A stretch of DNA of 64,000 nucleotides from an uncultured Leptospira sp. (GCA_964509195.1 CAZDWJ010000001.1:30311-94310), one strand, 5' to 3'; counted from the stretch's first letter, positions 6,928 through 52,716 are shown. Program-made: numbers and translations. Notes: generated by a model from the sequence alone, not told the origin.

Positions 6928-7011
6928 TGCCGCGAGAGGGATTCGAACCCTCACAGGCGTACACCCACCAGACCCTGAACCTGGCGCGTCTACCAATTCC
7001 GCCATCGCGGC
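6928..7011 (-). tRNA. tRNA-Leu (anticodon CAG), class II with long variable arm, no encoded CCA
   Basis: Manual cloverleaf: acceptor GCCGCGA/TCGCGGC, anticodon stem CCAGG/TCTGG with loop TTCAGGG, 15-nt variable arm, T arm GAGGG-TTCGAAT-CCCTC, discriminator A. Confidence 0.9.
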
Positions 7012-7121
7012 TTGTTGATAGTATTGATTTTATCACATCATGTATTTGTCAAATAAAAATTTATTGAATTAACTAAATAAATGCCCTCTGCAACATTGTT
7101 TCGATACACACAGCATTGTGT

Positions 7122-27947: not shown

Positions 27948-28401
27948 TGGCATCTATCATTGTTTCAGGGATATATGCTTTGCAATACAGCATATCACCG
28001 TCACTGAAAATAAAAACGGGCGAAGCATTTGCTATAGTTATAAGCCCAGTTTGAGAAGTTGAAAGCACTTTTGCAACAAGTACATCAATAAAGGGTTTAT
28101 GGGTTACTACAATTATATTTCTTTTTTCCTGTATTAAATACTGCATAATAGAATCGGGGCTATCTTTAGGATTTATTGATTTGTTGACAGCAACTTCGCA
28201 ATTAAATTTTTCAGCAACTATCGCCGCACTTTCATAAGACCGCAATATCCCGCTATGAATAACAATATCAGGTTTCCAATTAATTATATGCAGAAATTGA
28301 GCAAATTTATGAAACTGTTCTCTTCCTTTTTGAGACAAAGGCCGTTGTTGATTTATTGACGAATCCACTGCGTCACCATGTTGTATAATTATTGCTTCCA
28401 T
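27916..28401 (-). CDS. sixA: SixA-type phosphohistidine phosphatase (histidine phosphatase superfamily)
   Basis: N-terminus MEAIIIQHGDAV...RPLSQKGREQ matches the SixA RHG-type motif. The start is taken at this Met (the ORF track extends to 28422). Confidence 0.7.
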   Translation of the reverse strand: MEAIIIQHGDAVDSSINQQRPLSQKGREQFHKFAQFLHIINWKPDIVIHSGILRSYESAAIVAEKFNCEVAVNKSINPKDSPDSIMQYLIQEKRNIIVVTHKPFIDVLVAKVLSTSQTGLITIANASPVFIFSDGDMLYCKAYIPETMIDAIIRSFSSRQA

Positions 28402-28673
28402 TGTGGCCTCCATCAAAAACAAAAGACTTTATGTAAAAAACTCTACTGATATTTAGATTTATCATATATCATCAAATATTATTAATCAATTACTATTTAT
28501 TTATAAAATCATATTATCACACTTTTATAATATCCCCCGTCAGCATTCTGATTATGCAGATGTTCATTATTTACTTTTAAAGTTGACTTCATAACTATTT
28601 CAGATTAGAATACTACACACTATAACATTACCAGCCATAATCGCTATTTATTATTATTTATTATTGGATTATT

Positions 28674-29585
28674 ATGATGTTACTATCACCACTTATCAGA
28701 TACCTGAATAAGCAACGCCAGAAAAGATTATTCCCCAAAAAGAAGGTCCTTATTCTTGAAGGCGGTGGAATGCGAGGAGTTTTTTTAACTGGAGTTTTAC
28801 AAGCTTTTACGGACAGAGATTATTTCCCTTTTGAATTAATCATAGGATCATCAGCTGGCGCACTAACAGGAGTGGCATACTCTGCTGGTCAGATTTATCT
28901 GGCCAGGGATGCTTTTTTCGGAGTTCTATTGAGCGAGAGTTTTATAAAAATTTCAAATATACTACGGCCAACAAAGCATATACTAAATTTAGACTGGATG
29001 GTTTCAACAGTAATTGAAGGCAATGAGACATTAAACTTTCAATACCTTAAGCACTCAATACCAGTGTTGATAACCGCAACCGAATACAGTGATAATAACC
29101 CTCCTGAAACGGTATATCTTCATTCAAAGAAGGATGATATAATACCATCATTGAAAGCTTCTGCTGCAATCCCTGTATTGTATAGGGGCTTTATTGAATA
29201 TAACAACCGCAAACTCTGTGATGGAGGATTGCTTGATCCAATCCCTTACAAAAAAGCATTAAGCCTTGGCTATAAGGAAGAAGACATCCTGGTTGTTGTT
29301 ACCAGAAAAAAAGGGTATCGGAAAAAGGAAGAATCATTCTGGATAAGATATCTTATTGAAAATTATTTTAAGGACACAAAATACCGTTACTTAACTCAAG
29401 CTCTTGAAAATCGATATCTTATGTACAATGCAATCCTTGATGAGCTTGAACACAAGTATAAAAATATACGCATTATCTATCCACCTGATAATTTTATAGT
29501 AGACCGATTAACGCGCGACCCTAAAAAAATCCTGGAAGGATTTGAACAGGGTGTTCAGTGCGGTAAAAATTTCTTATTATCATAA
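28674..29585 (+). CDS. patatin-like phospholipase
   Basis: Oxyanion GGGMRG, nucleophile elbow GSSAG and catalytic Asp motif CDGG. Confidence 0.88.
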   Translation: MMLLSPLIRYLNKQRQKRLFPKKKVLILEGGGMRGVFLTGVLQAFTDRDYFPFELIIGSSAGALTGVAYSAGQIYLARDAFFGVLLSESFIKISNILRPTKHILNLDWMVSTVIEGNETLNFQYLKHSIPVLITATEYSDNNPPETVYLHSKKDDIIPSLKASAAIPVLYRGFIEYNNRKLCDGGLLDPIPYKKALSLGYKEEDILVVVTRKKGYRKKEESFWIRYLIENYFKDTKYRYLTQALENRYLMYNAILDELEHKYKNIRIIYPPDNFIVDRLTRDPKKILEGFEQGVQCGKNFLLS

Positions 29586-29592: not shown

Positions 29593-30642
29593 TCACTGAA
29601 CCTGCACTTTATTAACTTCTTCTTTGATTTTTTCAATACTTTGCTTATGTTTCCCTTTAATTTCTTCATAGCTTTTTCTATATGCTTCTTTAATTGCCAT
29701 TATTGCTTCATAATTAGCTTTTTGCTGTTGAACAACCTTATCAGCCTGCTGTTTTACCTTATTAAAGGTGTTAAATATTTCCTGTCTTTTTTCCTTATAA
29801 CTCTGCAAAACATGGTCTACTGCTGCGTTGGCACAATCGCCTAAAAAATAATCATCAGCTATTAACGCTACCTTAGTTTCCAGCTCACTCATATCTTTTT
29901 CTAATTTTTTAGAATCCTTTTTCTTAGTGGATGATTGTTTAAATTTTTCTATCTCAGCTGATTGCATTGAGCTTCTTTGCTCCAGCATTCCCAGATATTC
30001 CTCATAACTTGCAGCAAATTTTTCAGGCTCAAGTACAAAATCTTTATCAGCAGTATTTTTCCACACTTCAGGGTTTTTGGGGTTTTCATCAAGCAATGGC
30101 TTTTGTGCAAGTTCAGCAGTAGCTTGCTCATCTCCACGTATATTTATTTCCCCATATGGATTAACTAATGCAAGCGCTCCCTCTTCCATATTAACTCTGG
30201 AATTTGAGCTATCACTAACCGCAACAAAAAACTCTGTTCCCCTGATTGCACATACAGTGGTTGGAGTATATACTTTCTTTGATTCACCCTTTTGTAATTT
30301 TGAAATTTTTGCCTTGATGACACCATTTATTACAGAAACATTCTCTTCTTTATCTTGTATTGCGGCAACCTTAACCTTTGTATTTTCAAAAATCCTCACA
30401 GTACTTTTGTCTGCAAACTGAAATTCAGTTATACTTGCGTTCTTTGTTACAACAATATCTCCCTGAGCCAGCTGCATTCCCACCACTGCAAGTGTCTGTT
30501 TACCATCACGTTCAATTACTACATCGCCAACCACAAAGCTTATTTCCAGTGCAAAAACACACTTGGCCGACAACAAAACAGTAACAATACATACTAAATA
30601 TATTATTATAATTGATAAAACTTTTTTCATTCTATCCTCCAC
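29593..30642 (-). CDS. secreted FecR-domain protein with C-terminal coiled coil
   Basis: Signal peptide, then a FecR-like beta region (FVVGDVVIERDG...AIRGTEFFV). The C-terminal ~150 aa is Lys/Glu-rich and helical. Confidence 0.65.
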   Translation of the reverse strand: MEDRMKKVLSIIIIYLVCIVTVLLSAKCVFALEISFVVGDVVIERDGKQTLAVVGMQLAQGDIVVTKNASITEFQFADKSTVRIFENTKVKVAAIQDKEENVSVINGVIKAKISKLQKGESKKVYTPTTVCAIRGTEFFVAVSDSSNSRVNMEEGALALVNPYGEINIRGDEQATAELAQKPLLDENPKNPEVWKNTADKDFVLEPEKFAASYEEYLGMLEQRSSMQSAEIEKFKQSSTKKKDSKKLEKDMSELETKVALIADDYFLGDCANAAVDHVLQSYKEKRQEIFNTFNKVKQQADKVVQQQKANYEAIMAIKEAYRKSYEEIKGKHKQSIEKIKEEVNKVQVQ

Positions 30643-30892: not shown

Positions 30893-32095
30893 CTAAGGAT
30901 TAAATTTCATCCCCAGCATTGTGACATCATCAACAAAGCGGTCCGCTCCACAAAACTCCTGGATTTTATCAAACAAAAATTCTATTAATTCTGGTATCTC
31001 AAGTTCCCTGTGTTCATCAATTAATTGCTGAAACCGCTTTTCACCAAGAATTCTATCAACCCTATCAGGGCACTCAAAGGCCCCATCAGAAAAAAATAGC
31101 AATTTATCACCAGGCAAAAGCTCAATACTTTTTGTTGCATACAGTGACGTATCAAATATTCCGACAAAGGGTCCTGTTGTTTCCATCCTTATAACCTGTC
31201 CATCAGAATGCACTACAATAGGTGCAGGCAAGCCGGCATTTACATACTCAAGGCGGGATTTCTCCAAATCAAAATGTGCAAAAAATATCGTTGCATAATT
31301 GTAGCTCATCATCTTTTGCGTCTGTATAAGGAACTGATTCATTTCTTTCAAAATGTCAGAAGGAGGCTTTGTTACATCTACAAATGTTGTGATAGCTGTC
31401 TTTACTATTGCTGAATAAAGTGCAGCAGGTACTCCGTGACCAGATACATCCGCAAAAATAAAAGAAAAATGCTTTTCGTCATGAATAATAAAATCAAAAA
31501 AATCACCACTTATTTTTTCTACGGGTTTGAATTTTAGATAGAATGTAAACTCTTTGATATCAGGAAAAACAACAGGGAAAAGACACTGTTGCAGGTTGCT
31601 AGCAATATCAAGCTCATTCTCAATCTGAATGGAACGTGCTTGTATTTGTGCATAGAGCCGTTCTAGTTCCTGGTTTTTTAATTTAAGTTCCTCTAGCAAT
31701 TTTATATTTTCTTTTATGAGTTTATGGCGTTCATAAGCCCTATGCACTGCAAGTGTTATCTGATCATTTTTAAAAGGTTTCAGTATAAAATCAAAAGCCC
31801 CTGCCTTTAGCGCTGATATTGCCACTTCAATGTCATTATACGCAGTGATAACAATTATGGGAACATTCTCATCAATTTCATGTACTTTGTGTATAAATTC
31901 CAATCCATTAATACCCGGCAGGTTCACATCGGTTATTATGACATCTGCAGAAGTAATAACCCCACTTTTCAATGCATCTTCGGCAGTATAAAAATTGCGT
32001 ACTTTATATTCATTTTCAAGAATAAACTTCAATACTTCATTAACCATCTCATCATCATCGATGATTATTGTAGTTGGCATTTCTATTTCTTTCAT
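30893..32095 (-). CDS. response-regulator receiver - PP2C (SpoIIE-type) phosphatase
   Basis: REC domain (IIIDDD, VIITDVNLPGINGLEF, ILKP), a coiled linker and PP2C motifs (SGDFFDF, FIFADVSGHGVPAA, LFFSDG, DDVTMLG). Confidence 0.88.
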   Translation of the reverse strand: MKEIEMPTTIIIDDDEMVNEVLKFILENEYKVRNFYTAEDALKSGVITSADVIITDVNLPGINGLEFIHKVHEIDENVPIIVITAYNDIEVAISALKAGAFDFILKPFKNDQITLAVHRAYERHKLIKENIKLLEELKLKNQELERLYAQIQARSIQIENELDIASNLQQCLFPVVFPDIKEFTFYLKFKPVEKISGDFFDFIIHDEKHFSFIFADVSGHGVPAALYSAIVKTAITTFVDVTKPPSDILKEMNQFLIQTQKMMSYNYATIFFAHFDLEKSRLEYVNAGLPAPIVVHSDGQVIRMETTGPFVGIFDTSLYATKSIELLPGDKLLFFSDGAFECPDRVDRILGEKRFQQLIDEHRELEIPELIEFLFDKIQEFCGADRFVDDVTMLGMKFNP

Positions 32096-35000
32096 CTATC
32101 GAACACCATCATATATACCTTTTAATGTGCGACTATATAAACGAATTCCCATCCAGTAGGCAGGATGTTTAAAACGTTTGTCTTTCTTCAAATATTGTTG
32201 CGCTGATATTAATGAATTAACAATGCTTTCTAATGTAACAGCTTTGCAAAATTCCCTTATGAAAATTATTCTGTTAACATCTGCAACTGAAGTATTCAAC
32301 AGAATATACTTCCCCATTTCTTTTTGAATCATGAACAACAAATAATTATATGGAATCTGTAATGTATTGCTCAAATTGATAAATAAAAAGTTTGTTTGTA
32401 ACATATAATCATTAATCATCAACTCTTTTTTAAGATTATTATACTCAACAGGCACATCAACAATCATTATTCCTTTTGCTATCGTATCAAATGTAAACGC
32501 TAAACCCGATTGTTTGAGCGCTGACACAATCAGTGGATTTCTGGTGTTGTCCACATTAATCCATGTAATAGGGGCAACAGTCCCGTTCTCATCCAGCGCT
32601 GTTACCAGACAGGGCATAAAATTGATAGCCATATCACTTTTATTAAATTGAATTATTTCATACGGTATAGATTCAGTATATGCATCAGGAATAACAACAA
32701 TGGAAGTATAGCCACTGAGTTCCCTAATGACTGGTTTCATGATATCACTGATTGCCGCTTCTGTATCAAATGTCTGCTGCAATAATCCAACCCGGTTATA
32801 AAAATCAGCAACAATACCATATAATTGTGTATAAGCATTTTGCAACCGCACTGGTTGTATAAATGTTTTTGTTATTATCCAGGCAAAAATATCATTTTCA
32901 TTTTTTGTTATGTATAATAAGGCTGTCTGTCGGGGAATATTTTTTTGAATATCAATAATTGGGAAATTTTTTGCGATGAGTTCATTATAAATACTTTTAT
33001 ACCTGTTATTTTCATTAAATGTTGCTATGCCGATTATCATCCTTTGCAATTCAGCATACCGCAGTGCCTCACGTTGATTCCCTCTGCTCATTGCATACGA
33101 TATTGCATAATTGATAAGTTTATCCAGCAAATACTTATATTCAGCATAATACCACTGTATGACATCCCCTTGCAAGCTGCCTACCAGTACATCAATATTC
33201 TTGGCGATAATTTGTAACAAAGTACTCTCAGCAGTTTTTTCTGTAGAAATTTTTTGGAGTTGTATGTTCAGATCAAAAAGTGTATATAATGGTGCATCCC
33301 AGGTAGCCATCTTGCTTTCATTTAAAAGTTTTTGCGCTTCACCAGTTTTTCCTGTCATTATCGCCGAATAAATATAATTTGCATACCATATCTTTTCCAA
33401 TTCAAATGGCACCTGTTTCAAACTTTTGCAGGAATCATATGCCTGAACAAAATTATTTGTTTTTTGATATGCATTGATTTTATTGAGAGCTACAATATGA
33501 GATACAATCATACCCTTTTGTGTAGCAACTGCATCGATATACTGCAATGTTCTTGAAGGAATAGCACTATTTAGTATTGTGGCCAATTTTGCAGTTGTGA
33601 ATTGTATATCAAGCCAGCACATTTTATTGCTTTTTTCAGCAATGAGCATGATGTGCTGCCATTCCTCATTGCTTATAGCTGGCTTTTGTGTTATAATTTC
33701 AAGGATAGCAAAAGGATATATAGTACTGTATTCTTCGACTACATTTGCAGGGTTGGCACTATAATTTTCTAGCTCTGTTGTTTTTATCATTTTATATGCT
33801 ACTGTGTTAGTATGAAAATCAATAGAATATCCTAAATTGTGAGCAACTAACAACTCTCGCTGAGAGGGAATATAATCTGCTTTATACAGCTTCATTATTG
33901 TTTTAGCTTTCTCACTTTCACCTAAGAGGTAAGCTCCCTGTGCATACAGTAATAGCAATTGACTAACAGGTAAAATTGAAATGCTTTGCTTTGGGATTTC
34001 AATACTGTCAGGAAGTTTTTCTTTATACTTATTTGCTTTAATTAATGCTTTATACACAATGTAATCAAAAGTCTGTGCCAGTCGTGAATCAGCAATTATT
34101 TTCTCTGCACTATTACTATCACCTTTTAAAAGGTACACATACGCACTATATGATATAGCATTTGTACTATCTTGAGATCGTATCAACTCTAATGCTTCGT
34201 CTAATTTATTCATATAAATCAAAACTTGAATTTTTTTCTCACTATACTCTTTTAAGGTTAAGCCAGCTCTCCTCCACCGTTGCAAAGCTGATAGTGCTTC
34301 ATCATACTTCCCACTCACCAGAGCATCATTAAACTCTTTTTGCTTTTTCTGAACAACCTTCTGTACATTGTCATCTCTTACTTTTTTTGAATCTGGCACT
34401 TTTCCAAGCACTATTACTTTTTCTTTCAGAGAGTCAACCAAACTCAAATCATTATTAAGAAACGACACTACAAGATTTTGAGTATCCTTTCCCGAATATA
34501 GTATAACAGTAGCTATATGTGAATATAAAGCGGCATCTGCTAAAAGCATTAATTCATCAGCTTTAATTGTTTCCATATATTTTAAAAGTGCAGAGCATTC
34601 TGTTTTGTTTGCATAACAGTAATGTGGTGTAATAGCAATAACAGGTTTATCCGTATCAACAATATATTCAGATTCATTTATGTTGCTGGTGACATTTTCA
34701 AAATTTGGAAGCTTTGTGTCTGTAGCAATCTTACCCTCTGGCAACCACACTAACCGTTCAGCATCAGCTACCCGTGAAATAGAGGGCACACACCCCAGCC
34801 CGTTTAACACAGAATTACTAATATTGGTATGAACTGCAATGAATGCATCATTAAGTATACAATATATTTTACCACCCAATGGTTGTAGAAATTTTCTCAC
34901 ATCTTCAGATAATTCCTTTGACCATGGTGATTTTGAAATTAATTTCCAGTCAATTGTATTTTTATATACCACCCAGCCATAGAGTGCATTGTTCAAAAGA

Positions 35001-38000
35001 TAAAAATGTACTACAGGCAATTCAGAAGCTTGGGGTGCATACACACCCAAATAGGGTGACAAGTATACAGAGACAGAAGCTTTATACTCAGAAAGTTTTT
35101 TGTACTGCGATGTAATTGATGCTTTATATTTTTCAACACTATCTTCTTCAAGAATTGCTTTTGTAAGTTTTTGCTCTAAATCCTGTATGGTAAAACATGT
35201 TTTTAAATATTTGTTGTAAAGAATAGTATCACTTTCATTATAAAAATAAGGGATAGATAACGCATTAAAAGCCATTGTTACTATTTGTTTGCGCTCCTGA
35301 ATTGCATACGCCTCTTTATAACGTTTATTGTTTATTAATTCATCTGTATAAGAATCATAAAGTTTTTGTATAAACTCTTTTTTCATGGCATAAAGAGGTG
35401 GCAGCAATTCAACTCGTTGCAATACTCCAGCTATGAGCTTATCTGTATTCTCTATAAGCTGCTTGATTTCTTTATACATGTGTGCCAAATCCCACAGCGT
35501 TGCTTCAGCAGTCCACAGCAAATCCTTTGACTGGATTTTATTAGCCTTAAACCGTGCACTGATGATATCATCATATCCTTCCCTAAACTTGCCAGCACGT
35601 ATTCTGCATATTCCTCTATTAATGAGCAGCTTAACAACATATTCCTGATGTAAAGCATCATTCCCATAGTAGCTAATAGCTGTAGAAAATAATTTTTCAG
35701 CATCCCTGTAATATTGAATGATTACATTAACTTTTGAAGAGTAGCTGGCATCGCCAGTTGATTCTAGACTCTGCTCCATGATTGCAGCTTTATGCATGTA
35801 CAAAATCGCAGATAAAGCATCAAATTTAATGCTATAAGCTTCTACCTGCTTGGTTGCCTGTTCCTTTAACACAGCTATATCTTGGTCAGATACCTTTTTC
35901 TTTTGAGCCTTCATCTTATTTGTATACTCATCGACAAGTGCAGTATACACTTTTTCATACATATTGCTTTTTTGCTGCGCAATTATCTCAAGAGCGTCAT
36001 CAAGGCCTGCATTCTGTTGTATAGAATTTTTCAGGCTGGAAGTATAACAGTATGACCATTGAACCAGGATTTGATATATTTTATCAATTGTTATGTTTTT
36101 ATCTTTTGCAACAGTCAGTGCTCTATCGTATAATTCCAGAGCTTTACTCATAGACCCTGCTTGGGCATAACAGTACCCTGCATTATAGAGGGCAGTAAAG
36201 TGCGCATCGGCCATTAATGAAGTTTTTTGTTTTTTTGTTATTTCAGCTACTGCTAAATAGTGCGCTACCGACTCCTGAAATCTGCCACCCTTTGCATATA
36301 TATCTGCCTGCATATTATTGATAAGGACTTCCATTTCTGTACCCGATAGCTGGGAGACTATTTTCCCTTCACCAATAACAACAGTGTCCTGTCCAAGGTC
36401 ATAGAAGTAAACAGGCCCAAGCCCGGCAAATTTCCAGCCAATTTTATACTGCACTGAGGTTTCCTTTTGTAATGAGCGTCTGGCAAGTTCAAGATATACA
36501 AGCGCCTGGCTATCATTATCCATTCTGCGATAACATTCGGCTATCTCTATATATAGACGGGAAGGGCTTTCACCAATTTGAAAACGCGTTATTTGTATCA
36601 AGGCTTTACTATACCACTCAATGGTCTTATCATAATTTCCCTGCATCCGTTCAAAAAGGGCAAAATACTTATACAATGTGTACAGTGTCTCTGCAATTGC
36701 AGACTCATTTTTCTGAGCTATCGCCCTATAGACAGCATAGGCTTTTTGCATTGATGAATGTGCACCTGCATAATTGCCCTGTTGCCACAAGCAATAGCCG
36801 TAATGATAATAAAATAACGCTTCTTCTTTTAAATTTGAAAAAACCTTTTTAAATTCAATCGCTTTAGCATAATTGCGTGCAGCTAAATTAAAATTTTTCA
36901 AAAGAAAATAGATATTGCCTGTATTACAATAAATATCAGCTTCTCTTTGAGGGTTGATGTTTTCATCATTTGCAGCCAGTGCCTTCTCATACATGGGTAT
37001 AGTTTTCTCCCACAGATACTCAGGGAAATATGCATCAATTACACGTTTCTTAGATGGGAAAAGAACTCTAAGCTCATCAATATACTGATATATCCACCCT
37101 TTGAGTAAATATGCATCCACAAACATATCATCTATGAAAAGTGACCAATCAATATGTCGCAAAGCACTTGAAAATAATCCAAGAAGTGTTTCAAATTCCT
37201 GTGAAGATCTGCCATCCATGGCTTCTGGGGAAGGTGCCAGTTCTTGCGCCTGTTTTACATAGATATATCCCAGTCCATATATGTGAGCCTTATCAAAATC
37301 CATCCGCGCAATAGGCAATCGTTCCAAGTATTCCTTTTCAATATTGTTTATTGAGCTGCTCTGCAATAATGCCAGCATTGCATTAATATACCCTGTGTGA
37401 GCATCTGGTGCGTGTGCACTGTATATATCTCTATATCGCCGTTTGAGATGCAGTAGTGTATTCATGGTTATGTAGCGCTTATATAATGCTGCTGCATCTT
37501 TGAAATTACCTTCAGCGCCGAGTCTTTGTCCGGTGTTTTCAAAATATTCAATGAGTTGCTCTATAATAGAACGTATATCCTGCTTCCACTGTGCCTGATA
37601 ATTATTGACTGCAGCTTCATAGCACACAACCCACTCATCATTTTTTTGGACATAGTATAATTGCCCCAACGTTACATTAATTAAAAAATATGCAACATCA
37701 AGCTTCTTGGTATGTTCCAGCCCCTGTTTCAAAAGCGTTATTGCTTCATCATTGCGTGACAGTTCAATTAATCCTGCTGCTGCTACATAATTCATGATGG
37801 TTTTCACAATTGGCACAGTATATCGCCCGGCGGCTTCCAACGCTTTTGTATATCTTTCCTGAGCTGGGATATTTTTTGTATTTTCTATGATCTCAACAGT
37901 AATGGCATTTTTCAGATAGGTGTATGAAGATTGCAGTACAGCAATCCATTCTTCTGGTATGGTAAATGTGTTATACGCTAGTAACCCCGCCTTATAACGT

Positions 38001-39475
38001 ACATACATTAAACGGGTGTAATTGGGGTATTTTGCGATAATGTTGCTGTATATGCTCCTGGCTCTGTCATACATTTTTTCGTTTACATATACATCAGCCA
38101 GCTCTTCCATAAAGAATGGTGCTAGCTTTTCATCATTTTGCGCCGACAGTTCCTTAACACTATTCTCAAGCAAGGATATCTTTTCCCTGTCTTTCACAGT
38201 TTTTATTCGTGAGTAAATGAGCGCAGGCTTACTGTCAGATGCCATATCAGCAAGAATAGATGAAACAAATGAATACTGCTTTACGTACGATAGCTCATAC
38301 AATGCTTTAGCAATAACTATCTTAGAATCAGCATCATTTGCTTCTTTGAAAAAATGATATGTTGCAAACAGGCATCGCAGGTAGCGCTCTTCATCGTCAA
38401 AATCCTCTTTATACTTCAATGCAAGCTCATACTGCCGCTGTGCATTCTTTTGTTTTGGTATTATCCCGGTATGGGGGATCATGGCAATGTTAATAAACTT
38501 ATCCTCAACAATGCTGTACACAATCACACCTTCAGCATACGGCACCCAGCGTGGTGTTGCAGAAGGCTCTTCAATAAGCGTCAGGGGATATTCTTCATTT
38601 TTGTTTACATTATACCCATACAGCATACCCCTATCATTGGCATCCACTATACCATCGTTGTTGGTATCATACTGAATGCGTATGAAATAAATTTCATTAC
38701 TGCTTTTCCCAAAGCTGGGCGATAGCTCTACATATTTGTTATTGGTGATCTGATTAATTTCACCTGTCACAAGATTAATTGTGAATACATTGCTTCCCAT
38801 GCGGCTTTTTTTCACAAATATAAGTTCTTTGCCATCACTGGAAAAGCGTGGCTGCATTCCCTCTGTAATCTTGCGGATACCAGTACCTTCCCTCCCCATA
38901 ATATAGATGGATTCTTCACCATCACGGGTGGAAGAAAACGCAATGAATTTGCCATCAGGCGAAAAACAGGGAGAGGCATCACGTACCGGCCTGACAGCTC
39001 CCGAAAGAGGATCTTTTATGACAGTAATATTTTTTGATGGCACTTCCTGATCGCCCTGTGCAATTATCTTTTCTGGATCAAGTTTTATGATAAAGATATC
39101 GCCTTCAGGGTCATCACGTGTGGAAACAAACGCACACCATTTGCCATCCATTGCTATATCTGGCGAGAAATCACGTGCAGGATGCATGGTCACACGAACC
39201 GTAGTAATGTCATTAAGTGCACGCAGGTAGATATCAAAATTATTTCGTTCTTTATTTGATGCATAAATAAAAAACTTTCCATCAGCTGTTATACTGCCAC
39301 TAACATTAACCGACCGCTCAAAGGTAAGTGGAATAGAACGGCCTGTCCCAAAACGGTATTCCTTTGTCAATACCTGTGAATAATCAAATGGTATATCACG
39401 GTATGCTGTTGATGCACATCCCATGAAGACGAATAACAGCAGTACAAATGGCACTCTTTTCATTTTTTTACCCAT
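32096..39475 (-). CDS. 2459-aa lipoprotein: TolB-type beta-propeller + extended TPR array + degenerate CHAT-like C-terminal modules
   Basis: Lipobox LFVFMGCAS and PD40-type repeats (SPDIAMDGKWCAFVS, SPCFSPDGKFIAFSS, PRFSSDGKELIF). Many TPR-like units follow. The C-terminus has CHAT hallmarks IVVIPDAYTESIPYEII and FKHPAYWMGIRLYS. Confidence 0.7.
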   Translation of the reverse strand: MGKKMKRVPFVLLLFVFMGCASTAYRDIPFDYSQVLTKEYRFGTGRSIPLTFERSVNVSGSITADGKFFIYASNKERNNFDIYLRALNDITTVRVTMHPARDFSPDIAMDGKWCAFVSTRDDPEGDIFIIKLDPEKIIAQGDQEVPSKNITVIKDPLSGAVRPVRDASPCFSPDGKFIAFSSTRDGEESIYIMGREGTGIRKITEGMQPRFSSDGKELIFVKKSRMGSNVFTINLVTGEINQITNNKYVELSPSFGKSSNEIYFIRIQYDTNNDGIVDANDRGMLYGYNVNKNEEYPLTLIEEPSATPRWVPYAEGVIVYSIVEDKFINIAMIPHTGIIPKQKNAQRQYELALKYKEDFDDEERYLRCLFATYHFFKEANDADSKIVIAKALYELSYVKQYSFVSSILADMASDSKPALIYSRIKTVKDREKISLLENSVKELSAQNDEKLAPFFMEELADVYVNEKMYDRARSIYSNIIAKYPNYTRLMYVRYKAGLLAYNTFTIPEEWIAVLQSSYTYLKNAITVEIIENTKNIPAQERYTKALEAAGRYTVPIVKTIMNYVAAAGLIELSRNDEAITLLKQGLEHTKKLDVAYFLINVTLGQLYYVQKNDEWVVCYEAAVNNYQAQWKQDIRSIIEQLIEYFENTGQRLGAEGNFKDAAALYKRYITMNTLLHLKRRYRDIYSAHAPDAHTGYINAMLALLQSSSINNIEKEYLERLPIARMDFDKAHIYGLGYIYVKQAQELAPSPEAMDGRSSQEFETLLGLFSSALRHIDWSLFIDDMFVDAYLLKGWIYQYIDELRVLFPSKKRVIDAYFPEYLWEKTIPMYEKALAANDENINPQREADIYCNTGNIYFLLKNFNLAARNYAKAIEFKKVFSNLKEEALFYYHYGYCLWQQGNYAGAHSSMQKAYAVYRAIAQKNESAIAETLYTLYKYFALFERMQGNYDKTIEWYSKALIQITRFQIGESPSRLYIEIAECYRRMDNDSQALVYLELARRSLQKETSVQYKIGWKFAGLGPVYFYDLGQDTVVIGEGKIVSQLSGTEMEVLINNMQADIYAKGGRFQESVAHYLAVAEITKKQKTSLMADAHFTALYNAGYCYAQAGSMSKALELYDRALTVAKDKNITIDKIYQILVQWSYCYTSSLKNSIQQNAGLDDALEIIAQQKSNMYEKVYTALVDEYTNKMKAQKKKVSDQDIAVLKEQATKQVEAYSIKFDALSAILYMHKAAIMEQSLESTGDASYSSKVNVIIQYYRDAEKLFSTAISYYGNDALHQEYVVKLLINRGICRIRAGKFREGYDDIISARFKANKIQSKDLLWTAEATLWDLAHMYKEIKQLIENTDKLIAGVLQRVELLPPLYAMKKEFIQKLYDSYTDELINNKRYKEAYAIQERKQIVTMAFNALSIPYFYNESDTILYNKYLKTCFTIQDLEQKLTKAILEEDSVEKYKASITSQYKKLSEYKASVSVYLSPYLGVYAPQASELPVVHFYLLNNALYGWVVYKNTIDWKLISKSPWSKELSEDVRKFLQPLGGKIYCILNDAFIAVHTNISNSVLNGLGCVPSISRVADAERLVWLPEGKIATDTKLPNFENVTSNINESEYIVDTDKPVIAITPHYCYANKTECSALLKYMETIKADELMLLADAALYSHIATVILYSGKDTQNLVVSFLNNDLSLVDSLKEKVIVLGKVPDSKKVRDDNVQKVVQKKQKEFNDALVSGKYDEALSALQRWRRAGLTLKEYSEKKIQVLIYMNKLDEALELIRSQDSTNAISYSAYVYLLKGDSNSAEKIIADSRLAQTFDYIVYKALIKANKYKEKLPDSIEIPKQSISILPVSQLLLLYAQGAYLLGESEKAKTIMKLYKADYIPSQRELLVAHNLGYSIDFHTNTVAYKMIKTTELENYSANPANVVEEYSTIYPFAILEIITQKPAISNEEWQHIMLIAEKSNKMCWLDIQFTTAKLATILNSAIPSRTLQYIDAVATQKGMIVSHIVALNKINAYQKTNNFVQAYDSCKSLKQVPFELEKIWYANYIYSAIMTGKTGEAQKLLNESKMATWDAPLYTLFDLNIQLQKISTEKTAESTLLQIIAKNIDVLVGSLQGDVIQWYYAEYKYLLDKLINYAISYAMSRGNQREALRYAELQRMIIGIATFNENNRYKSIYNELIAKNFPIIDIQKNIPRQTALLYITKNENDIFAWIITKTFIQPVRLQNAYTQLYGIVADFYNRVGLLQQTFDTEAAISDIMKPVIRELSGYTSIVVIPDAYTESIPYEIIQFNKSDMAINFMPCLVTALDENGTVAPITWINVDNTRNPLIVSALKQSGLAFTFDTIAKGIMIVDVPVEYNNLKKELMINDYMLQTNFLFINLSNTLQIPYNYLLFMIQKEMGKYILLNTSVADVNRIIFIREFCKAVTLESIVNSLISAQQYLKKDKRFKHPAYWMGIRLYSRTLKGIYDGVR

Positions 39476-40056
39476 CGTCCATCTTCTTTTTGGATCCAGT
39501 CGCCTTTTTTTGCTTTAGCATGTTGCTCTTTTGCAAAATCATATCCAAACTGTATGGCTTTAGGATCTTTAGCATCCTTTGAATCAGAACTTTTGATAAA
39601 AATTATCTGACGCGCATTGTTCTCATCATTTATAACAGAACGAATAACTTCATTATCCTTTATTGACTGCAATTTTTTTTCATCAACAATACCTATATAG
39701 CCATTATACATTTCACCAACAATCCCCATGTCTTTATATTGACGTATCCTGTCAAGGTTAAGTTCGCGCATTTGTATTGCACGTAGCATTGATTCATCAA
39801 TAGCTCCAAGTGCACGGCGCTCACCTTTTGACGGCACCATAACGGTTGAAGTCACCCACGCATCTTTTTCGATTTCTTTATATTCACCAATAAGCTGTCG
39901 CTCCAATGCGGTTTTTTCACCGGTGATGTTGATAGCGGGAGGATGTATTTCAATACAGCTAGGAGCCCCTTTCAGGCATCCTGATGAACTGCAGCCTGCC
40001 TGCGAATACAGTATACCGGCAATGACAGCAAGTGCTATCGCTTGTATATGTTTCAT
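39460..40056 (-). CDS. lipoprotein with YdbL (DUF1318)-like domain, possible YnbE-YdbL fusion
   Basis: The Cys-containing N-terminus (LYSQAGCSSSGC) fits a lipoprotein signal. The YdbL-like core is MGIVGEMYNGYIGIV...VINDENNARQIIF and the tail is KKGDWIQKEDGRWVKK. I compare these with the E. coli YdbL segments recalled as GRVGETFYGYL and GEYVQGINGKWVRK. Confidence 0.65.
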   Translation of the reverse strand: MKHIQAIALAVIAGILYSQAGCSSSGCLKGAPSCIEIHPPAINITGEKTALERQLIGEYKEIEKDAWVTSTVMVPSKGERRALGAIDESMLRAIQMRELNLDRIRQYKDMGIVGEMYNGYIGIVDEKKLQSIKDNEVIRSVINDENNARQIIFIKSSDSKDAKDPKAIQFGYDFAKEQHAKAKKGDWIQKEDGRWVKK

Positions 40057-42776
40057 AGCGTTTCCTCCCTTACTCTATTAAAAAATTCAATGACAGGTAT
40101 ACGTTCATAGCGCACTCTTTCATTATTGACAGTAACAAAAACACCAAGCACCTTTTTTCTGAACAACACCGTTGGATACACCAGCCCTTTATCTATATAA
40201 AAATCAAAACCGGTAATAATGAGCGAATTATCCACCGCAAACTGCGCCATTCCTAATTTAGACTTTCCACGCTCTTCATTTATTCCCTTAAATAGCCTGT
40301 TTGCAAATTGCTCCCCAACCTTATATATGTTCACCGAACCTGAAATATCAAAATCCTCTGCAATGTTGAGATTTTTTCCCGCAACCTGTGCATTAAGCGA
40401 TAACAGCGAATCTTTATTAATTTTTACAGATTCTGGCTTATCTAACGTGCCTATATCAATATCATTGGCATTGAGCATCATCCTGAATTCCATATTTTTT
40501 GGATTGAGATCTGCTAAATTAAAATTTAATTCTTTAAGAGTAATTGTCCCCTTTAGGACCCGGGCACGCACATCTTTAATTTCTACCATGTTACGATTAA
40601 AGCCAATATACCCGTGCAAATTGCTAAGATATTCAAATGGGATATTGCGTGAAGGGTGCTGCGCAACAATTTTACCAACTGAAAAATTTGCCTTCTGTTT
40701 GAAAAGCTGAATGTTCAATACATCAGCTGAATCAAATGGCATCTTAAAGCTCTGACCCATAGAATAGGCTATGGGTATATCCATATCAACAGGACCAACA
40801 AAAAGCCTGGTGTTGTTACTCAGTGTTAATATATGTGCCTGTAAACTCCCTTTCGCAACTAATGATTGCATTGTACCTTTAAGTCGCAAAAATACATTCA
40901 GTACGCCGCTTAATGTATAGTCACCAAAATTAACCGGTGCCCTGGGGGCCACGTTTACTCCTGCATCAACATCAAGTGCAACATCTTCTTTTGTAATTAC
41001 TGTGCCTTTTGCATACATCCTGGCATGATGCTTTTTGCTCGAAATATCAAATGAGGCTATATCAATTTTACTTTTTTGCGGTTTCTGCGTAATTGCTACT
41101 TTCACTGTTAAATCATCAATAGAATAATCCGGTATTTTACAAAGTGCTTTGAGATTTATTTTATTTGTTTCATCCGAAACACTTACATCTGTGAGTATAT
41201 TCAACGTCACCGGCTTTGTAATAGGAGTTGATTCTAAGGATTGCTTTAACTGAACAGGCAAAGCATACGCTATTGAAGGGATATCAAACTTCAATGTAGA
41301 CACATTAATAGTAGCATCCATAGTATTACCTACTATTACTGAACCAGCTGCTTCACATCGTAGTGTCTCGGCTGCTATCTCTGGGGCTTTGTGTACCAGG
41401 ATTAACTTCTTGATGTTCAGTGATTTTGTATTCATTGTGTACACTACATCACATTGTACACTAATAGCGTTATCCCGCGACCTGTTTTCCTCAAGTGTAT
41501 ACACAAAATGCGGAAGGCCAACATTTATAGATGCTTCAATGCTATTGTTGAGCAACACAGCAGAATAGGGTATATCAACTTGTGGGATAGAGATCGCAAA
41601 TCCATCTGTGGCAAAAGCCAGCCGATTGCCCCGTATTGAACCCTTTATTGTTAGCCCGTATTTATCACCCGCAATCATAAGAGGAAAAATTGAAATCGTT
41701 CCATTAAAATACGGCTGTTTACCTAAAAGTACACTGGTATAGCGGTACACTTCATTGAGGCGAATATTGCTGTCAATCATACCCAACTGTATCCGGGGCT
41801 GTGAGTTTACGTGTGCGATAGTACCTGCAAATGAAATCCATGTCGATTGTCCAAAGACAATCTGTACTTTATTGCAGCGTAATACATCTTCTGCTGGATT
41901 ATACACAATATCATATTCCACATTAGCATTGAGTGGTGCCAGGTGTTTTTTGGTAAACCTAACTGGGGTATTGTGTGTGCCACATTTGAAGTTGCTTGAC
42001 AGATGCTTTTCATCAGGATCGTACAAAAGAGTGAAGGTAAATAAAAGGGGGGGCCCTGCAATCACATCCTTTGATACAAATGAAAGATGCAACGTTTCTT
42101 CAGGATTAACTGTAATGTGTAATTTATCAAATAGCATTATTGCCAGCATATTCAATGGGATGTGGCGTACCCTGGGAAGGTGCACAGAAATGCCAGTTGA
42201 AAAATTATCCAGGTTCAGATTGTAGGTGCTGCTGGTAATCTTTAATGACAAGTTTTCCAGCACAAACCCAAAAAGAATTTCTACGGGAACTGGAAAGGAT
42301 AGTTCGCCTTTTTCTTCCTTTTTTCCTTTTTCAGCTTCTTCTTTTTCTTCTTTCTCTTCTTTTTCAGAGGGCTTCACCAGTTTTTGTACATTCCATACAC
42401 CTTTCTGCTCTTCAATAAATATTTTTGGATTATACAAACCAATCTCATAAATCTTTATCTTACCTATCAATAGTGAGAAAAAACTATAGTGCACTTTCAA
42501 TTGATCAAAATGGATTACAGGCTTTGAATTAACGTTATCTGTAAGTGTGAAATTTTTAATTTCAAACCCATTGAATAATGAAAAATGCGTTACCTGGCAT
42601 GAAGCACGTGCATTTAAATTGAACTCTATCTGACTTGTAATAATTTTTTCTACTCTGCCGTTTGTTAATACTATGTTGGCAATAAAAAGAATAATCACTA
42701 TCAGAACAATCAAACTACAGAGTACTATGCCAATATAAGAAATAATTTTAATGATATATCGCAGTAATTCTTTCAA
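40053..42776 (-). CDS. AsmA-like / YdbH-like large membrane-anchored envelope protein
   Basis: 907 aa with a single N-terminal TM helix, then a long beta-rich sequence. Its position directly upstream of a YdbL-like gene mirrors E. coli ydbH-ynbE-ydbL. The family assignment rests on context and architecture. Confidence 0.5.
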   Translation of the reverse strand: MKELLRYIIKIISYIGIVLCSLIVLIVIILFIANIVLTNGRVEKIITSQIEFNLNARASCQVTHFSLFNGFEIKNFTLTDNVNSKPVIHFDQLKVHYSFFSLLIGKIKIYEIGLYNPKIFIEEQKGVWNVQKLVKPSEKEEKEEKEEAEKGKKEEKGELSFPVPVEILFGFVLENLSLKITSSTYNLNLDNFSTGISVHLPRVRHIPLNMLAIMLFDKLHITVNPEETLHLSFVSKDVIAGPPLLFTFTLLYDPDEKHLSSNFKCGTHNTPVRFTKKHLAPLNANVEYDIVYNPAEDVLRCNKVQIVFGQSTWISFAGTIAHVNSQPRIQLGMIDSNIRLNEVYRYTSVLLGKQPYFNGTISIFPLMIAGDKYGLTIKGSIRGNRLAFATDGFAISIPQVDIPYSAVLLNNSIEASINVGLPHFVYTLEENRSRDNAISVQCDVVYTMNTKSLNIKKLILVHKAPEIAAETLRCEAAGSVIVGNTMDATINVSTLKFDIPSIAYALPVQLKQSLESTPITKPVTLNILTDVSVSDETNKINLKALCKIPDYSIDDLTVKVAITQKPQKSKIDIASFDISSKKHHARMYAKGTVITKEDVALDVDAGVNVAPRAPVNFGDYTLSGVLNVFLRLKGTMQSLVAKGSLQAHILTLSNNTRLFVGPVDMDIPIAYSMGQSFKMPFDSADVLNIQLFKQKANFSVGKIVAQHPSRNIPFEYLSNLHGYIGFNRNMVEIKDVRARVLKGTITLKELNFNLADLNPKNMEFRMMLNANDIDIGTLDKPESVKINKDSLLSLNAQVAGKNLNIAEDFDISGSVNIYKVGEQFANRLFKGINEERGKSKLGMAQFAVDNSLIITGFDFYIDKGLVYPTVLFRKKVLGVFVTVNNERVRYERIPVIEFFNRVREETL

Positions 42777-42908: not shown

Positions 42909-43283
42909 ATGAGTACATTAAATGATCTTTTTTCTTCCGAATATTTAAAAAGTGACGCTATTCTCATTGGGAAAATTAAAAAGCCGTCCCTAACCAAAGA
43001 AGAGGCTACTCAAATCTTAGAATTTGTCAAGCAAGATATACAGAACTACGCTGACCATCAGCATTTCATTCTTGATGTGTTGGCCGTACAGGAAGTTTCC
43101 AACCCTATCATTGGTGTTTTAATGAAAGCACTGCAGTTCTGGAAAAAAACACGAGGATATGCCCTTCTGGTGATGACTGATGATCTTTTACAAAAAATAA
43201 TGATTGAGCAGCCTGCAATGTTTGATTTCTTTGCGGTATTCCACACTGTTGATGAGGCAATAGCTTTTACTAAAAAGGGATAA
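42909..43283 (+). CDS. STAS-domain protein (anti-sigma-factor-antagonist-like)
   Basis: 124 aa. FILDVLAVQEVSNPIIGVLMKAL resembles the SpoIIAA DLSxVxFxDSSGLGxL region, and the C-terminal FHTVDEAIAF is typical of the family. Confidence 0.55.
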   Translation: MSTLNDLFSSEYLKSDAILIGKIKKPSLTKEEATQILEFVKQDIQNYADHQHFILDVLAVQEVSNPIIGVLMKALQFWKKTRGYALLVMTDDLLQKIMIEQPAMFDFFAVFHTVDEAIAFTKKG

Positions 43284-43286: not shown

Positions 43287-46200
43287 TTATAAATCTTTAA
43301 TTATCTTCCTATCGATTGCAACTGCTGTGTGAGCAGGATGTTCAATAACCTCATTCATTTCAGTCTTTTCCTTAAAGCGTAAGACATTTAACATGAATAT
43401 TTCAAGTTTGTTCAATGTTGTAGGTGGCAGAGTATTGCCATCAATTTCAACTGACAAAACAGGATAACCTTGAGCACGTGCCCATGGAGTAAGAATGCCT
43501 TCAATGACACGGCCAATCAAACAGGCAAATGGTGAAATATTGACAATGCCTGAATAGCCATCCTGCATTGCCATTGCTGCTACTCCACTTGAAACAGTAA
43601 TCTCAGATTGAAGCTCCAGATCCACAAAATGTTTTTGTGACATATTCATGATATGGTACATATCATGAGGTGTTTCTGGAATCAAACGGGTTTTCTTAAA
43701 TGCATCTTTAACTTTTTTCTCAACATAATGTTTATACCACTGCTCAATATAAAACTTCAACAGAAATCTGAACTCAGGGATGATAATCTTTTTATACCAT
43801 GGTACCAATGTAATAGCCTTCTTGTATTCATACTGGCGTACGAAATCACAGTAATATATCCATTCACTTACGCCTGAAACTTTTGCAATAATACCTTTTC
43901 TGCTGAAGTGCTTCACCAGTTCATCAACCGCAAAATCATCCCTGCGAACATAGATTTCACCCACTATAAGTACTTTTGGGCATTGTTCGATAGCTCTCTG
44001 TAATGGAATATTGCTGATAGTATTCGCAATCTTTTTCAATACCGGTATAACCTTAGTGACATCCTTCTCGGCAACTGAGATTAACTCCTGCCACAACTGA
44101 TCATACAGTGCCAGTGCACTAACAGGATCCTTGGCACATGCTCTGAGTGAGGTTTCAATGTCCTTCATATAATCACTGATGACAACGCCCCACCAGGCAT
44201 GCTTTGAGAAGTGTGGTCCTAATTCAGTATATGAATGCGATGAATCCAGTGTCACCACACAGACATTTTCAAGGCGCAAATCTTTAAATAGGTTTTCATA
44301 AAACACATAATATTGCCCCGTACGGCATGGCCCTTGTGTTGTAGGTATAAATAGAAGATATATTTCATCCTTTTTATATCGTGGTGAAGCAAAGTACTGC
44401 AATGCGCTTCCCAACACAAGATGTGAGGGCAAACACTCTTTTCCTGATACAAATTGCCGTGCTATTTGTAACGTCCTGGCATCCGGCACTTGCATCGCCT
44501 CAGCGTGTATGCCAGCAGATCGCAAAGAAGCAGCCAAAAGCTCTGCACCTAAACGACCCATACTAGCTAAAAGCAATGTTACTTTATTGTTATTGCGCAC
44601 CGTAATTTTTTCATTTGTAATAATGTTGCGTACATACAGTTCATCATCCTCAATCACAAAGCGCAAACCGTTATCATAACGCTGGGACTTTTCATCCACA
44701 CATTTCTGCCGGTAGCCTTCTATAATATCCAGAAATGCTTCAATGCGCGTATCAATACCTGCATCAGCCGTGTGGGAATCAAGCTCTAAGATGAGAAAAG
44801 GCTTTGAGCCCATAATCCATTTAAGATAGTGCAGCATGAATGAATCAGGAGCACACGAAAAATTTGAAATAAACGTCACATAGATATTATCTTCTTTTGC
44901 AAGCATAACGCTTGCTTTCATATCCTGCTGGCCATAAAACCAGTACATGTTGGAAAATATTGTTTCATCCTCAAATGGCAGTATGTCAAATGGAATAACT
45001 GTATACCCAATGCTGGTAAATTTTTTGGGAATACCCATATTTGCATCTTTAGTAAACGCATTATATGGCCTCCCTAATAGCGCAATTACAGGCTTTTGCA
45101 ACATCCGCGCAAACTCCAATGCCTGCATACCAAGGTTTCTGGCTTTTTCAAAATACTCTTTCTGCTTTTCCAGCGCTAACCTGAAAGCTTTTTTCCCTTC
45201 TTTTTTTGAAAATCCTAATGTTACTGCAACTTTTACAAATGAGTCTTCAGTAATTTTATCCGATAGTTTAAAACTAATAACCGGTGAAAGTATTTTTTCT
45301 TTAGGGATTTCATCAAATGCCTTTTTAATATAATATGGCAATCCCTGAGTGATCGGACAAAATGTAGCACGTGCATCATCCTGGTAGCTCTCCATCTCTT
45401 TGATGTGCGGCAGGAAGATATAATCAACATGTTTATCAAGAATATTTTTAACAGCACCGTGAGCTATCTCAGCAGGGAAGCAATAGGCACTTTCAACTTT
45501 AGCCATTCCCTCTTCTGAAATTTTATCAGAGGTAACTGTCGCCACACCCAATTCATTAAAAAACCATGAATACAGTGGCCACAGTGTATATGTAGAAAAA
45601 CACAGGGGAATACCCACCGTTATTGACGCATCCCGTGGTGTTTCCTGTGGTGCACATTCACAGAATAATAACTCATTTCTCTTTTCAATAAAATCAACAA
45701 CTTCATTTTCATTGATAATTCTTTTTTTGCGCTTATTAGCATACTTACTGCACCTGCCGCCAAACATATATTTATTGCCATTGACGTTAAGCATTCTGAT
45801 ACTACAGTAGTTATCACATGCTTTGCAGGTAAACTCTCGTTCATAGACAATTTCAGTATTCAGAATTGCATCAAGAGAATAATATTTTTTTTGCATCAGA
45901 CCATCCTGTAACTTCTGCAGTGCAACTATCGCCACACCAAAACACCCTAAAAGTTCAGGATCTGGTGGTACAGTAATATGCTTTCCCAGCAACATGGCAA
46001 ATGCAAGTGGTACTGCCTTATTTTTTGCCACACCACCCTGAAGTACAATAGAATTACCAATAGTTCTGTTTCCCACAACACGATTGAGATAGTTAGCAAC
46101 AATAGACGTTACAAGGCCTGCAGTTATATCTTCCTTGCTAGCTCCCTGCTGAATAGCCTTGCGTATGTCTGAATTAATAAACGCTGAACAGTGCTCACCA

Positions 46201-52207: not shown

Positions 52208-52228
52208 GTAACAACCTCCTAATGTATG

Positions 52229-52696
52229 TTAATAAACAGTAACACTATCAAGAATCAAATCCACAACTTTTGGTATTGATTCTTCCACCGAAGGGCTTAG
52301 CATACTATCAAGTGACGATATATCCTCAGGGACAATTCCGATTACTTCAACTTCCGGCTGATATCCCTGAATCTTCAAAATCTTCAACACTTCAGCTATG
52401 CCCATTTCATGCAATGAAACCTGTGGTGATTGTGCTTTCAGGTGCTGTCCATTAAATTTATATATACTGCCGGGTCGGTCATTAACCTTTAATGCATCGA
52501 TAATAACAAGTTTATCATATCCCACCATATATGGAATGAGATTAAAACCAGCAGTACCTCCATCCATCACATCTACGCTAGCAGGGAGATGGATGTTTTG
52601 TTGTTGCAAATACTGCACCACATGTACTCCAACACCATCATCTTTTTGAAATACATTTCCTATACCAAGAATTAATGTTTTTTTACCACGTTTCAT
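52229..52696 (-). CDS. hydrogenase maturation endopeptidase (HyaD/HybD family)
   Basis: 155 aa. ILGIGNVFQKDDGVGVHVV, IIDA and the SLHEMG region. Confidence 0.88.
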   Translation of the reverse strand: MKRGKKTLILGIGNVFQKDDGVGVHVVQYLQQQNIHLPASVDVMDGGTAGFNLIPYMVGYDKLVIIDALKVNDRPGSIYKFNGQHLKAQSPQVSLHEMGIAEVLKILKIQGYQPEVEVIGIVPEDISSLDSMLSPSVEESIPKVVDLILDSVTVY

Positions 52697-52716
52697 TGCA
52701 CCTTAAATATATACCA

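Follow-up and report, generated by a model that had tools for sequence, protein, structure and literature searches.

A conserved gene triad in uncultured spirochaetes joins an AsmA-like protein, a lipid-anchored YdbL-domain protein and a giant lipoprotein

Introduction

The route by which phospholipids reach the outer membrane and the outer-membrane-side partners of AsmA-like bridges are open questions that have been studied mainly in Escherichia coli. In E. coli, the length of YdbH reportedly falls short of the width of the periplasm, and YnbE caps YdbH by beta-strand augmentation (PMC11126948). A further protein, YdbL, binds the acidic C-terminal helix of YnbE, which YdbL residue R61 is reported to contact (bioRxiv 10.64898/2026.03.16.712125). 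Here we analyzed a 64,000-nucleotide stretch of DNA from an uncultured Leptospira sp. (GCA_964509195.1 CAZDWJ010000001.1:30311-94310), in which four minus-strand genes code for an AsmA-like protein, a lipoprotein with a YdbL domain, a giant lipoprotein and a response regulator of the phosphatase type. The whole stretch is referred to as the window, and positions are counted from its first letter. An earlier note on this DNA had compared the first genes with the ydbH-ynbE-ydbL cassette and had proposed a four-gene envelope machine with a signalling output. We found that the conserved unit is three genes (AsmA-like, YdbL-like and giant), not four. We favour, with moderate confidence, the interpretation that the locus is an envelope operon built on this three-gene module, a variant of the YdbH-YnbE-YdbL-type bridge with a giant partner.

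Results

Conservation of gene order around the giant lipoprotein gene

As read from the sequence, the four minus-strand open reading frames lie head to tail and encode proteins of 907, 198, 2459 and 400 amino acids (aa). The features of the block are as follows.

40053..42776 (-), gene 1, AsmA-like protein, 907 aa, TTG start
39460..40056 (-), gene 2, YdbL/DUF1318 lipoprotein, 198 aa
32096..39475 (-), gene 3, giant lipoprotein with PD40, tetratricopeptide repeat (TPR) and CHAT-like regions, 2459 aa
30893..32095 (-), gene 4, receiver-PP2C protein, 400 aa
42777..42908, divergent intergenic region of 132 bp, presumed promoter region of the operon and the sole untranslated gap upstream of gene 1

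At least 149 proteins belong to the giant family; nearly all of them measure 2,400-2,700 aa and come from uncultured Spirochaetota. The loci described here stem from uncultured genomes labelled Leptospirales/Leptospiraceae. A scan anchored on the giant gene, with one genome taken per species, gave 77 loci, which were annotated by phmmer. In all 61 evaluable species-level loci, the AsmA-like and DUF1318 genes were adjacent upstream of the giant gene and on the same strand. These loci comprise the window lineage and relatives down to ~26% identity, and the AsmA-like gene often overlaps gene 2 by 4 nt in them. Three look-ups at ~30% identity returned the same triad order. Downstream of the giant gene, a receiver-PP2C gene was found in 24 of 56 loci (about 40%) and another PP2C gene in one of the 56 (L083). 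A gene for a FecR-domain protein followed the giant gene directly in 12 of 56 loci and followed the receiver-PP2C gene in 18 of the 24 loci that have one, while unrelated genes such as a PP-loop ATPase occupied this position in the remaining loci. The four-gene order that the earlier note expected to find conserved therefore stood for the first three genes and failed for the fourth.

A second scan was anchored on gene 2 in metagenome data. The giant gene lay downstream of gene 2 in 40 of 49 loci. Among the 34 loci evaluable on both sides, 13 contained the full triad, 12 contained gene 2 and the giant gene without an adjacent AsmA-like gene, 9 contained neither, and none had an adjacent AsmA-like gene without the giant. 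Upstream of gene 2, the 12 loci carried a DUF948 or formiminotransferase gene instead; the AsmA profile used here was built from close relatives, so that distant AsmA copies may escape it. The pair of gene 2 and the giant gene is the most persistent link, and AsmA adjacency is always accompanied by the giant.

One locus suggests that the triad may exist outside Spirochaetota: the full triad on a non-spirochaete-looking JGI contig (L088; Ga0568907_0000573) lies beside LptD and two proteins with weak matches to sorting tails of the type IX secretion system. In some distant lineages (L118, L115, L127, L134 and L150) the gene 2 homologue and the giant gene are separated by an insert of at least one gene; the insert in L118 (2992-4134) encodes an AAA_21/AbiEii-type ATPase.

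Gene junctions and transcription

The packing of the block that had been reported earlier was borne out at each junction. Genes 1 and 2 share an ATGA overlap at 40053-40056, before which stands AGGGAGGA. The overlap of genes 2 and 3 is 16 nt long (39460-39475) when ATG 39475 is taken as the start of gene 3. In close relatives the protein begins at the second Met (MKR...), which here is ATG 39463; with this start the overlap would be another ATGA, at 39460-39463. The junction of genes 3 and 4 has no gap, the TAG of one being followed by the ATG of the other (TAGATG; 32096/32095).

Dense gene packing alone is an ordinary trait of operons; here the packing is conserved across relatives. The gap between genes 1 and 2 is -4 in 22 related loci and 0 to +2 in 26, and between genes 3 and 4 it lies within -4 to +5 in 15 of the 24 loci with a gene 4. 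The four genes are likely to lie on one transcript, judging from this arrangement. A scan for consensus promoters returned 64 sites, compared with 59.4 +/- 8.5 in shuffled sequence; since such sites are no commoner than expected, the scan is silent, in both directions, on internal promoters. Terminator-like sites numbered 18, compared with 8.6 +/- 3.4 in shuffled sequence, and occurred on both strands, which leaves them uninterpretable. An identical copy of the locus is present on an uncultured-spirochaete metagenome contig (GCA_900096875.1).

Gene 1 is an AsmA-like protein

Gene 1 encodes an inner-membrane-anchored AsmA-like protein with a periplasmic rod that is mostly beta-strand, an assignment that is strongly supported. 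Its Pfam scores for AsmA (PF05170; 28.6 bits, cut-off 29.8) and DUF748 (35.2 bits, cut-off 50) come from matches confined to the N-terminal ~140 residues. Both models were matched at E<=0.01 by 15 of 17 members of the gene 1 family, with a best value of 2.1e-9, and relatives are named 'AsmA family protein' by NCBI. The score against the NCBIfam model LIC_11026_fam (292.7 bits, cut-off 325) places gene 1 near the Leptospira LIC_11026 family. A hydrophobic stretch at residues ~10-36 coincides with a helix at residues 2-36 in the AlphaFold2 model, which we take as the N-terminal transmembrane anchor.

In this model, which has a predicted local distance difference test score (pLDDT) of 70, the N-terminal helix is followed by 42 strands that cover 57% of residues 40-907. 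When the model was compared with the PDB by Foldseek, the sole match below 1e-3 was LPD-3 (9cap_A, E 3.3e-5), a bridge-like lipid transfer protein; the template modelling (TM) scores were low, as is expected for long rods. The predicted strands are mildly amphipathic, with 30 of 42 above the shuffle mean and a mean z of 0.72, which is the sole and indirect hint of a lipid-binding groove. The AsmA-like character previously claimed for gene 1 is thus supported by its N-terminal Pfam scores (both below cut-off), the matches of its relatives, the beta-rich model and the LPD-3 match. The more specific claim, that gene 1 is YdbH-like, was not sustained: nothing specific to YdbH was found in it, and its operon partner is the only link.

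Between the AsmA-matching N-terminal segment and the remainder of the protein, residues ~135-157 (42308-42376) form a charged low-complexity stretch, EKEEKEEKEEAEKGKKEEKGE, with a pLDDT of 30-39.

Gene 2 is a lipid-anchored YdbL-domain protein

Gene 2 encodes a lipoprotein with a true YdbL domain, and this conclusion is likewise strongly supported. The protein consists of a lipobox with Cys22, which is invariant in the family, a conserved N-terminal segment from residue 22 to ~85 and a YdbL/DUF1318 domain at residues ~100-198. The identity of the C-terminal half follows from the agreement of three independent tests. The Pfam model DUF1318 (PF07027) scored 52.2 bits (cut-off 27); hhalign against E. 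coli YdbL gave a probability of 96.4 and an E-value of 1.1e-9 over the whole mature YdbL; and Foldseek returned a single match, the YdbL crystal structure 28oj, with a probability of 1.00, a TM score of 0.73 and a root-mean-square deviation of 2.6 A. Arg149, which is invariant in the gene 2 family, aligns with R61, the helix-contacting residue of YdbL.

The N-terminal segment carries a motif, PSC-IEI-PP-I-ITGEKT-LERQ-IGEY-E-E-DAW, that is almost invariant across 74 orthologues. In the monomer model its ~60 residues have a pLDDT <50 and are disordered. An exhaustive phmmer search found the segment in 68 cluster representatives only, 49 of them with DUF1318, and the proteins that carry it are nearly all of 180-240 aa, with a handful at 80-138 aa. 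The lipid anchor and the fused YdbL domain, together with a short motif resembling a strand and an acidic stretch resembling a helix, suggest that gene 2 may be a one-polypeptide analogue of YnbE plus YdbL, by inference and not by homology. Of the YnbE/YdbL-like character that had been attributed to gene 2, the YdbL domain and the lipobox held, and the YnbE part did not.

Gene 3 is a giant lipoprotein with CHAT-like modules

Gene 3 encodes a 2,459-residue lipoprotein whose CHAT-like modules lack catalytic residues, which we regard as strongly supported. A PD40 beta-propeller (residues ~30-340) is followed by a long TPR/alpha-solenoid and by CHAT-like modules at ~1500-1790 and 2165-2459. The lipobox, PD40 repeats and TPRs named in the earlier note were confirmed, the repeats by Pfam (PD40 57 bits, TPR_12 81.6 bits) and the lipobox by a Cys that is kept in most relatives. 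With a score of 93.1 bits against the TolB equivalog TIGR02800 (cut-off 343), the protein is not a TolB orthologue, and no tol or pal genes were found among the neighbours of gene 3 in the window.

Pfam CHAT (PF12770) found no match in gene 3, whether the whole protein or its C-terminal part was searched, also at E<=10. It was matched by the C-terminal regions of 12 of 15 relatives, with a best E-value of 4.5e-10; the three without a match are members of the window clade. In two full-length CHAT-positive relatives, the match comprised only the last ~70 profile positions (~214-284). The family profile of gene 3 had a sole match in the PDB, the CHAT-domain protein 8tl0, at E 0.6. A second CHAT-like module lies near residue 1500, and the orthologue on L088 has two Pfam CHAT matches; an internal duplication relating the two modules of gene 3 has weak support (hhalign E 0.024). 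In the family alignment, the nucleophile position is without a Cys in every aligned member, and the conserved His of distant relatives (G-x-x-H...YN) is replaced by Ile or another residue in the window clade. Because the catalytic Cys is missing and the His of the clade is replaced, we read the CHAT-like module as a predicted pseudo-protease and the protein as a putative non-catalytic scaffold, not a protease. The CHAT domain previously assigned to gene 3 is upheld only through homology with its relatives; the protein itself has no Pfam match to CHAT and no Cys, and the His is lost in its clade.

A shorter giant of ~1,780-1,810 aa, which seemingly ends after the first CHAT-like module, occurs in ten loci (L024, L026, L028, L029, L034, L045, L055, L062, L067 and L070). 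Six of these ten have a receiver-PP2C gene next, without FecR.

Gene 4 and signalling genes near the giant

As had been proposed, gene 4 encodes a canonical cytoplasmic receiver fused to an SpoIIE/RsbU-type PP2C phosphatase; its motifs are intact. Both of its Pfam scores lie above cut-off (Response_reg 94.3 bits, SpoIIE 153.5 bits), and by inspection the acceptor motif IITDVNLPG and the motifs DVSGHG, SDG and DDVT are all present. The best NCBIfam match, Pseudomonas RssB, scored 148.8 bits, far under the cut-off (700), and gene 4 is not an RssB equivalog. A gene on the opposite strand lies divergent from gene 1.

42909..43283 (+), divergent 124-aa protein with a possible STAS fold, Pfam STAS 18.7 bits (cut-off 22.6)

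This neighbour had been called a STAS protein; below the Pfam threshold as it is, it is a marginal STAS candidate. It scored 16.1 bits against TIGR00377 (cut-off 53.45), and hhalign against a Turneriella STAS protein gave a probability of 30. The top three PDB matches of its family profile were SpoIIAA-type antagonists, with E-values of 0.049-0.34, and Ser64, which is invariant, lies near the position expected for the phosphorylatable Ser. Of the 77 giant-anchored loci, 10 have the gene in the same position (the window's own contig and 9 others), and the metagenome scan added six close relatives that carry it.

Two Turneriella-type genomes contain a distant giant without an AsmA neighbour, followed by a GAF-PP2C gene, an RsbW-like kinase and a STAS protein. 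The GAF-PP2C of the window is closely related to the one that directly follows the Turneriella-type giant, against which it scores 349 bits. Signalling genes thus recur beside giant genes; the link is variable, with no evident route across the inner membrane, and is suggestive but weak.

The same GAF-GAF-PP2C gene of the window (582 aa, 25202-26950, plus strand) is a conserved neighbour in many related loci. At L062, the short giant gene is followed by a gene (6857-8854) in which a Ser/Thr protein kinase and a NIF-type phosphatase are fused.

Neighbourhood of the block

Four further features lie downstream of gene 4.

29593..30642 (-), FecR-domain envelope protein (LipL45/Lsa-like), conserved downstream neighbour, Pfam FecR 50.9 bits
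28674-29585, patatin-like phospholipase
27916-28422 (-), histidine-phosphatase-family protein
26967-27947, LPG_synthase_TM-family membrane protein

The likely start of the FecR-domain protein is ATG 30630 (MKKVLS...). The lipid-related neighbours at 26967-29585 occur in the same order in two relatives at ~30% identity (L005 and L006). On the other side of the block, positions 43287-47588 (-) encode a 1,433-aa BcrAD_BadFG plus DUF2229 protein of the CoA-enzyme activase type, which in many loci adjoins the cluster, either upstream or, on the opposite strand, downstream. Elsewhere in the window, an 898-aa protein (8372-11068, minus strand) has GreA/GreB domains at its C-terminus only and a long N-terminal extension with TPR, and an apparently unrelated NiFe hydrogenase cluster (large and small subunits, HycI maturation protease and HypF) lies at 49645-55964.

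Discussion

A proposed bridge with a giant partner

If the triad is a variant of the YdbH-YnbE-YdbL-type bridge, then gene 1, close to E. coli YdbH in size, would move phospholipid in the direction of the outer membrane and, like YdbH, would depend on a lipoprotein partner at its far end. The locus has no ynbE gene of its own, and the role of YnbE would be filled by the lipid-anchored, conserved N-terminal segment of gene 2. This segment may dock by strand addition; alone it is predicted to be unstructured, as the strand of YnbE is when modelled without YdbH. The fused YdbL domain would then act in cis on the segment. The giant would be a non-enzymatic scaffold, that is a fixed partner of gene 2, and of gene 1 where adjacent, and it might position, extend or gate the bridge, or tie the bridge to the cell wall or outer membrane. 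The receiver-PP2C would be a lineage-variable regulatory add-on, under the control of a kinase acting on its receiver Asp. Its probable substrate would be a STAS-type partner, and dephosphorylation of this partner would link expression of the envelope machine to a partner-switching circuit.

Several points weigh against this interpretation. Lipid binding, complex formation, the transcript and every functional step are inferred. The Pfam AsmA score of gene 1 is slightly under cut-off, and its C-terminal half had no Pfam match at E<=10, DctA-YdbH included. Its family showed no detectable similarity to E. coli YdbH by hhalign (probability 0.2), and the family profile found no match among PDB sequences; since AsmA-like proteins diverge strongly, these last two null searches are uninformative. 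The N-terminal part of gene 2 had no YnbE match in Pfam at E<=10, and homology to YnbE was rejected by two shuffle-controlled profile tests, in which the N-terminal profile scored 1.2 and 0.3 bits against E. coli YnbE, values equalled by 198 of 2000 and 452 of 3000 shuffles. In 12 of the 34 metagenome loci evaluable on both sides, gene 2 and the giant stand together with no AsmA-like gene next to them; the primary partner of the giant may therefore be gene 2, and the role of the giant need not be lipid bridging. As for the regulatory arm, receiver-PP2C is missing from over half of the loci, and neither an RsbW-type kinase nor a histidine kinase was found in the 64-kb window. PP2C genes also seem to be common, with two in the window and extra copies in many related loci, so that some PP2C adjacency could reflect chance or shared ancestry.

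Alternative explanations

The alternative that survives best takes gene 2 and the giant as the functional unit, an envelope scaffold unrelated to lipid transport in which the YdbL domain would be a chaperone or adaptor for the giant. The AsmA-like gene would then be a later neighbour, or would serve in the assembly or export of the giant in a TAM-like manner (TAM, translocation and assembly module). Such a unit would account for the 12 loci that carry DUF948 or formiminotransferase upstream and for the absence of AsmA adjacency without the giant, and it would fit the role of E. coli YdbL as a helix-binding modulator, not a transporter. Against it stands the presence of the AsmA-like gene in every one of the 61 loci, where it often overlaps gene 2. 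The 12 loci can also be read differently, because a profile made from close relatives may miss distant AsmA copies and because the AsmA-like gene could sit elsewhere in those genomes. We consider this alternative, with the roles that it gives the AsmA-like gene, unlikely.

A second alternative, along the lines of the hypothesis in the earlier note, makes the four genes a sensing machine: the giant would report the state of the envelope or its lipids to the receiver-PP2C, and a STAS partner-switching output would control a sigma factor. Signalling genes do recur immediately behind giants, as receiver-PP2C in 24 of 56 loci, the other PP2C of L083, the Ser/Thr kinase of L062 and the GAF-PP2C, RsbW and STAS genes of the Turneriella type. 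The STAS-like gene lies divergent to gene 1 in the 10 giant-anchored and six metagenome loci, and a receiver-PP2C is carried by all eight STAS-like loci with a fully readable post-giant region (a further locus, L012, shows at least the receiver start). These loci fall in two related subclades, however, and are not independent observations. Further, no transmembrane component joins the periplasmic proteins to the cytoplasmic phosphatase, the block lacks the histidine kinase that the receiver needs, the STAS assignment stays under the threshold, and over half of the triads have no adjacent PP2C. A partner-switching output is thus weakly supported, with a STAS candidate below threshold and no RsbW-type kinase in the window, and the sensing machine as a whole appears improbable to us.

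That the giant cleaves envelope targets as an active caspase-like protease of the CHAT type, with its TPR and PD40 regions as guides, is very improbable: it is suggested by the Pfam CHAT matches of relatives (best E 4.5e-10) and by the lone PDB match to 8tl0 (E 0.6), but the full-length relatives that were scanned match only the end of the CHAT profile, the window protein has no CHAT match at all, and we rejected it on the catalytic residues, with the Cys found in no aligned member and the His replaced in the window clade.

We therefore return to the bridge variant with a giant partner. A bolder form of it would make the giant the obligate structural partner of an unrecognised class of AsmA-like bridge, in which a lipid-anchored YdbL replaces YnbE and the state of the bridge is read via PP2C/STAS. 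This form is doubtful; if it were true, spirochaetes and related lineages would own a lipid-homeostasis machine with a built-in signalling arm. Whichever form applies, an AsmA-like protein is accompanied, in a bacterial lineage of dozens of species, by a lipid-anchored YdbL and by a very large lipoprotein that is read as non-enzymatic, and the three are concrete candidates for studying how AsmA-like bridges are completed and controlled outside Proteobacteria. For YdbL, so far known only to be small, soluble and a modulator, the locus also reveals a widespread form that is a lipoprotein and has a conserved, docking-like segment of its own.

Comparison with known systems

The earlier note knew of no described system with this combination of genes, and in the literature searched we likewise found no paper describing an AsmA-like protein, YdbL and a giant lipoprotein together, and none with both 'AsmA-like' and 'CHAT domain'. 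Parts of the locus resemble several known systems. Like Pseudomonas RssB/RssC and RsbU-RsbV-RsbW, it has the receiver plus PP2C architecture in gene 4 and a possible STAS gene nearby. It differs from the RssB/RsbU systems in the score of gene 4 (148.8 vs 700 bits), in having no RsbW-type kinase in the window and in that gene 4 is encoded inside an envelope operon.

Csx29 of type III-E CRISPR systems is a TPR-CHAT protein. The giant is like such proteins in joining TPRs to a CHAT-type domain, and its relatives match Pfam CHAT. Unlike Csx29-type proteins, it has no catalytic Cys (nor, in its clade, the His), is periplasmic and lipid-anchored, and lies in no CRISPR or defence context.

Within the periplasm, the giant joins a TolB-like propeller with TPRs, and so resembles TolB (a PD40 propeller) and CpoB/YbgF (TPR) of the Tol-Pal system. 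It is unlike TolB in its score (93 vs 343 bits), its lipid anchor and its length, which is about six times greater, and no tolQRA or pal genes are adjacent. As in TamB-TamA, TamB-TamL and other AsmA-like systems, a bridge and a dedicated outer-membrane-side partner are encoded alongside each other. Here, unlike in TamB-TamA and TamB-TamL, the partner is a PD40-TPR-pseudoCHAT lipoprotein, not an Omp85-family barrel, and the block has no BamA- or TamA-like gene.

The closest comparison remains E. coli ydbH-ynbE-ydbL. Both have an inner-membrane AsmA-like protein of similar size (907 vs 879 aa) whose gene runs through an ATGA overlap into a lipoprotein gene, and both have a true YdbL domain, in which the Arg of E. 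coli YdbL that contacts the YnbE helix is conserved. Unlike the E. coli cassette, the locus has an AsmA-like gene without YdbH-specific similarity and no separate YnbE gene, and its YdbL domain is lipid-anchored, with a distinct, conserved N-terminal segment that is not detectably YnbE. It also has a 2,459-aa lipoprotein as obligate third member and, often, a phosphatase-type response regulator as fourth.

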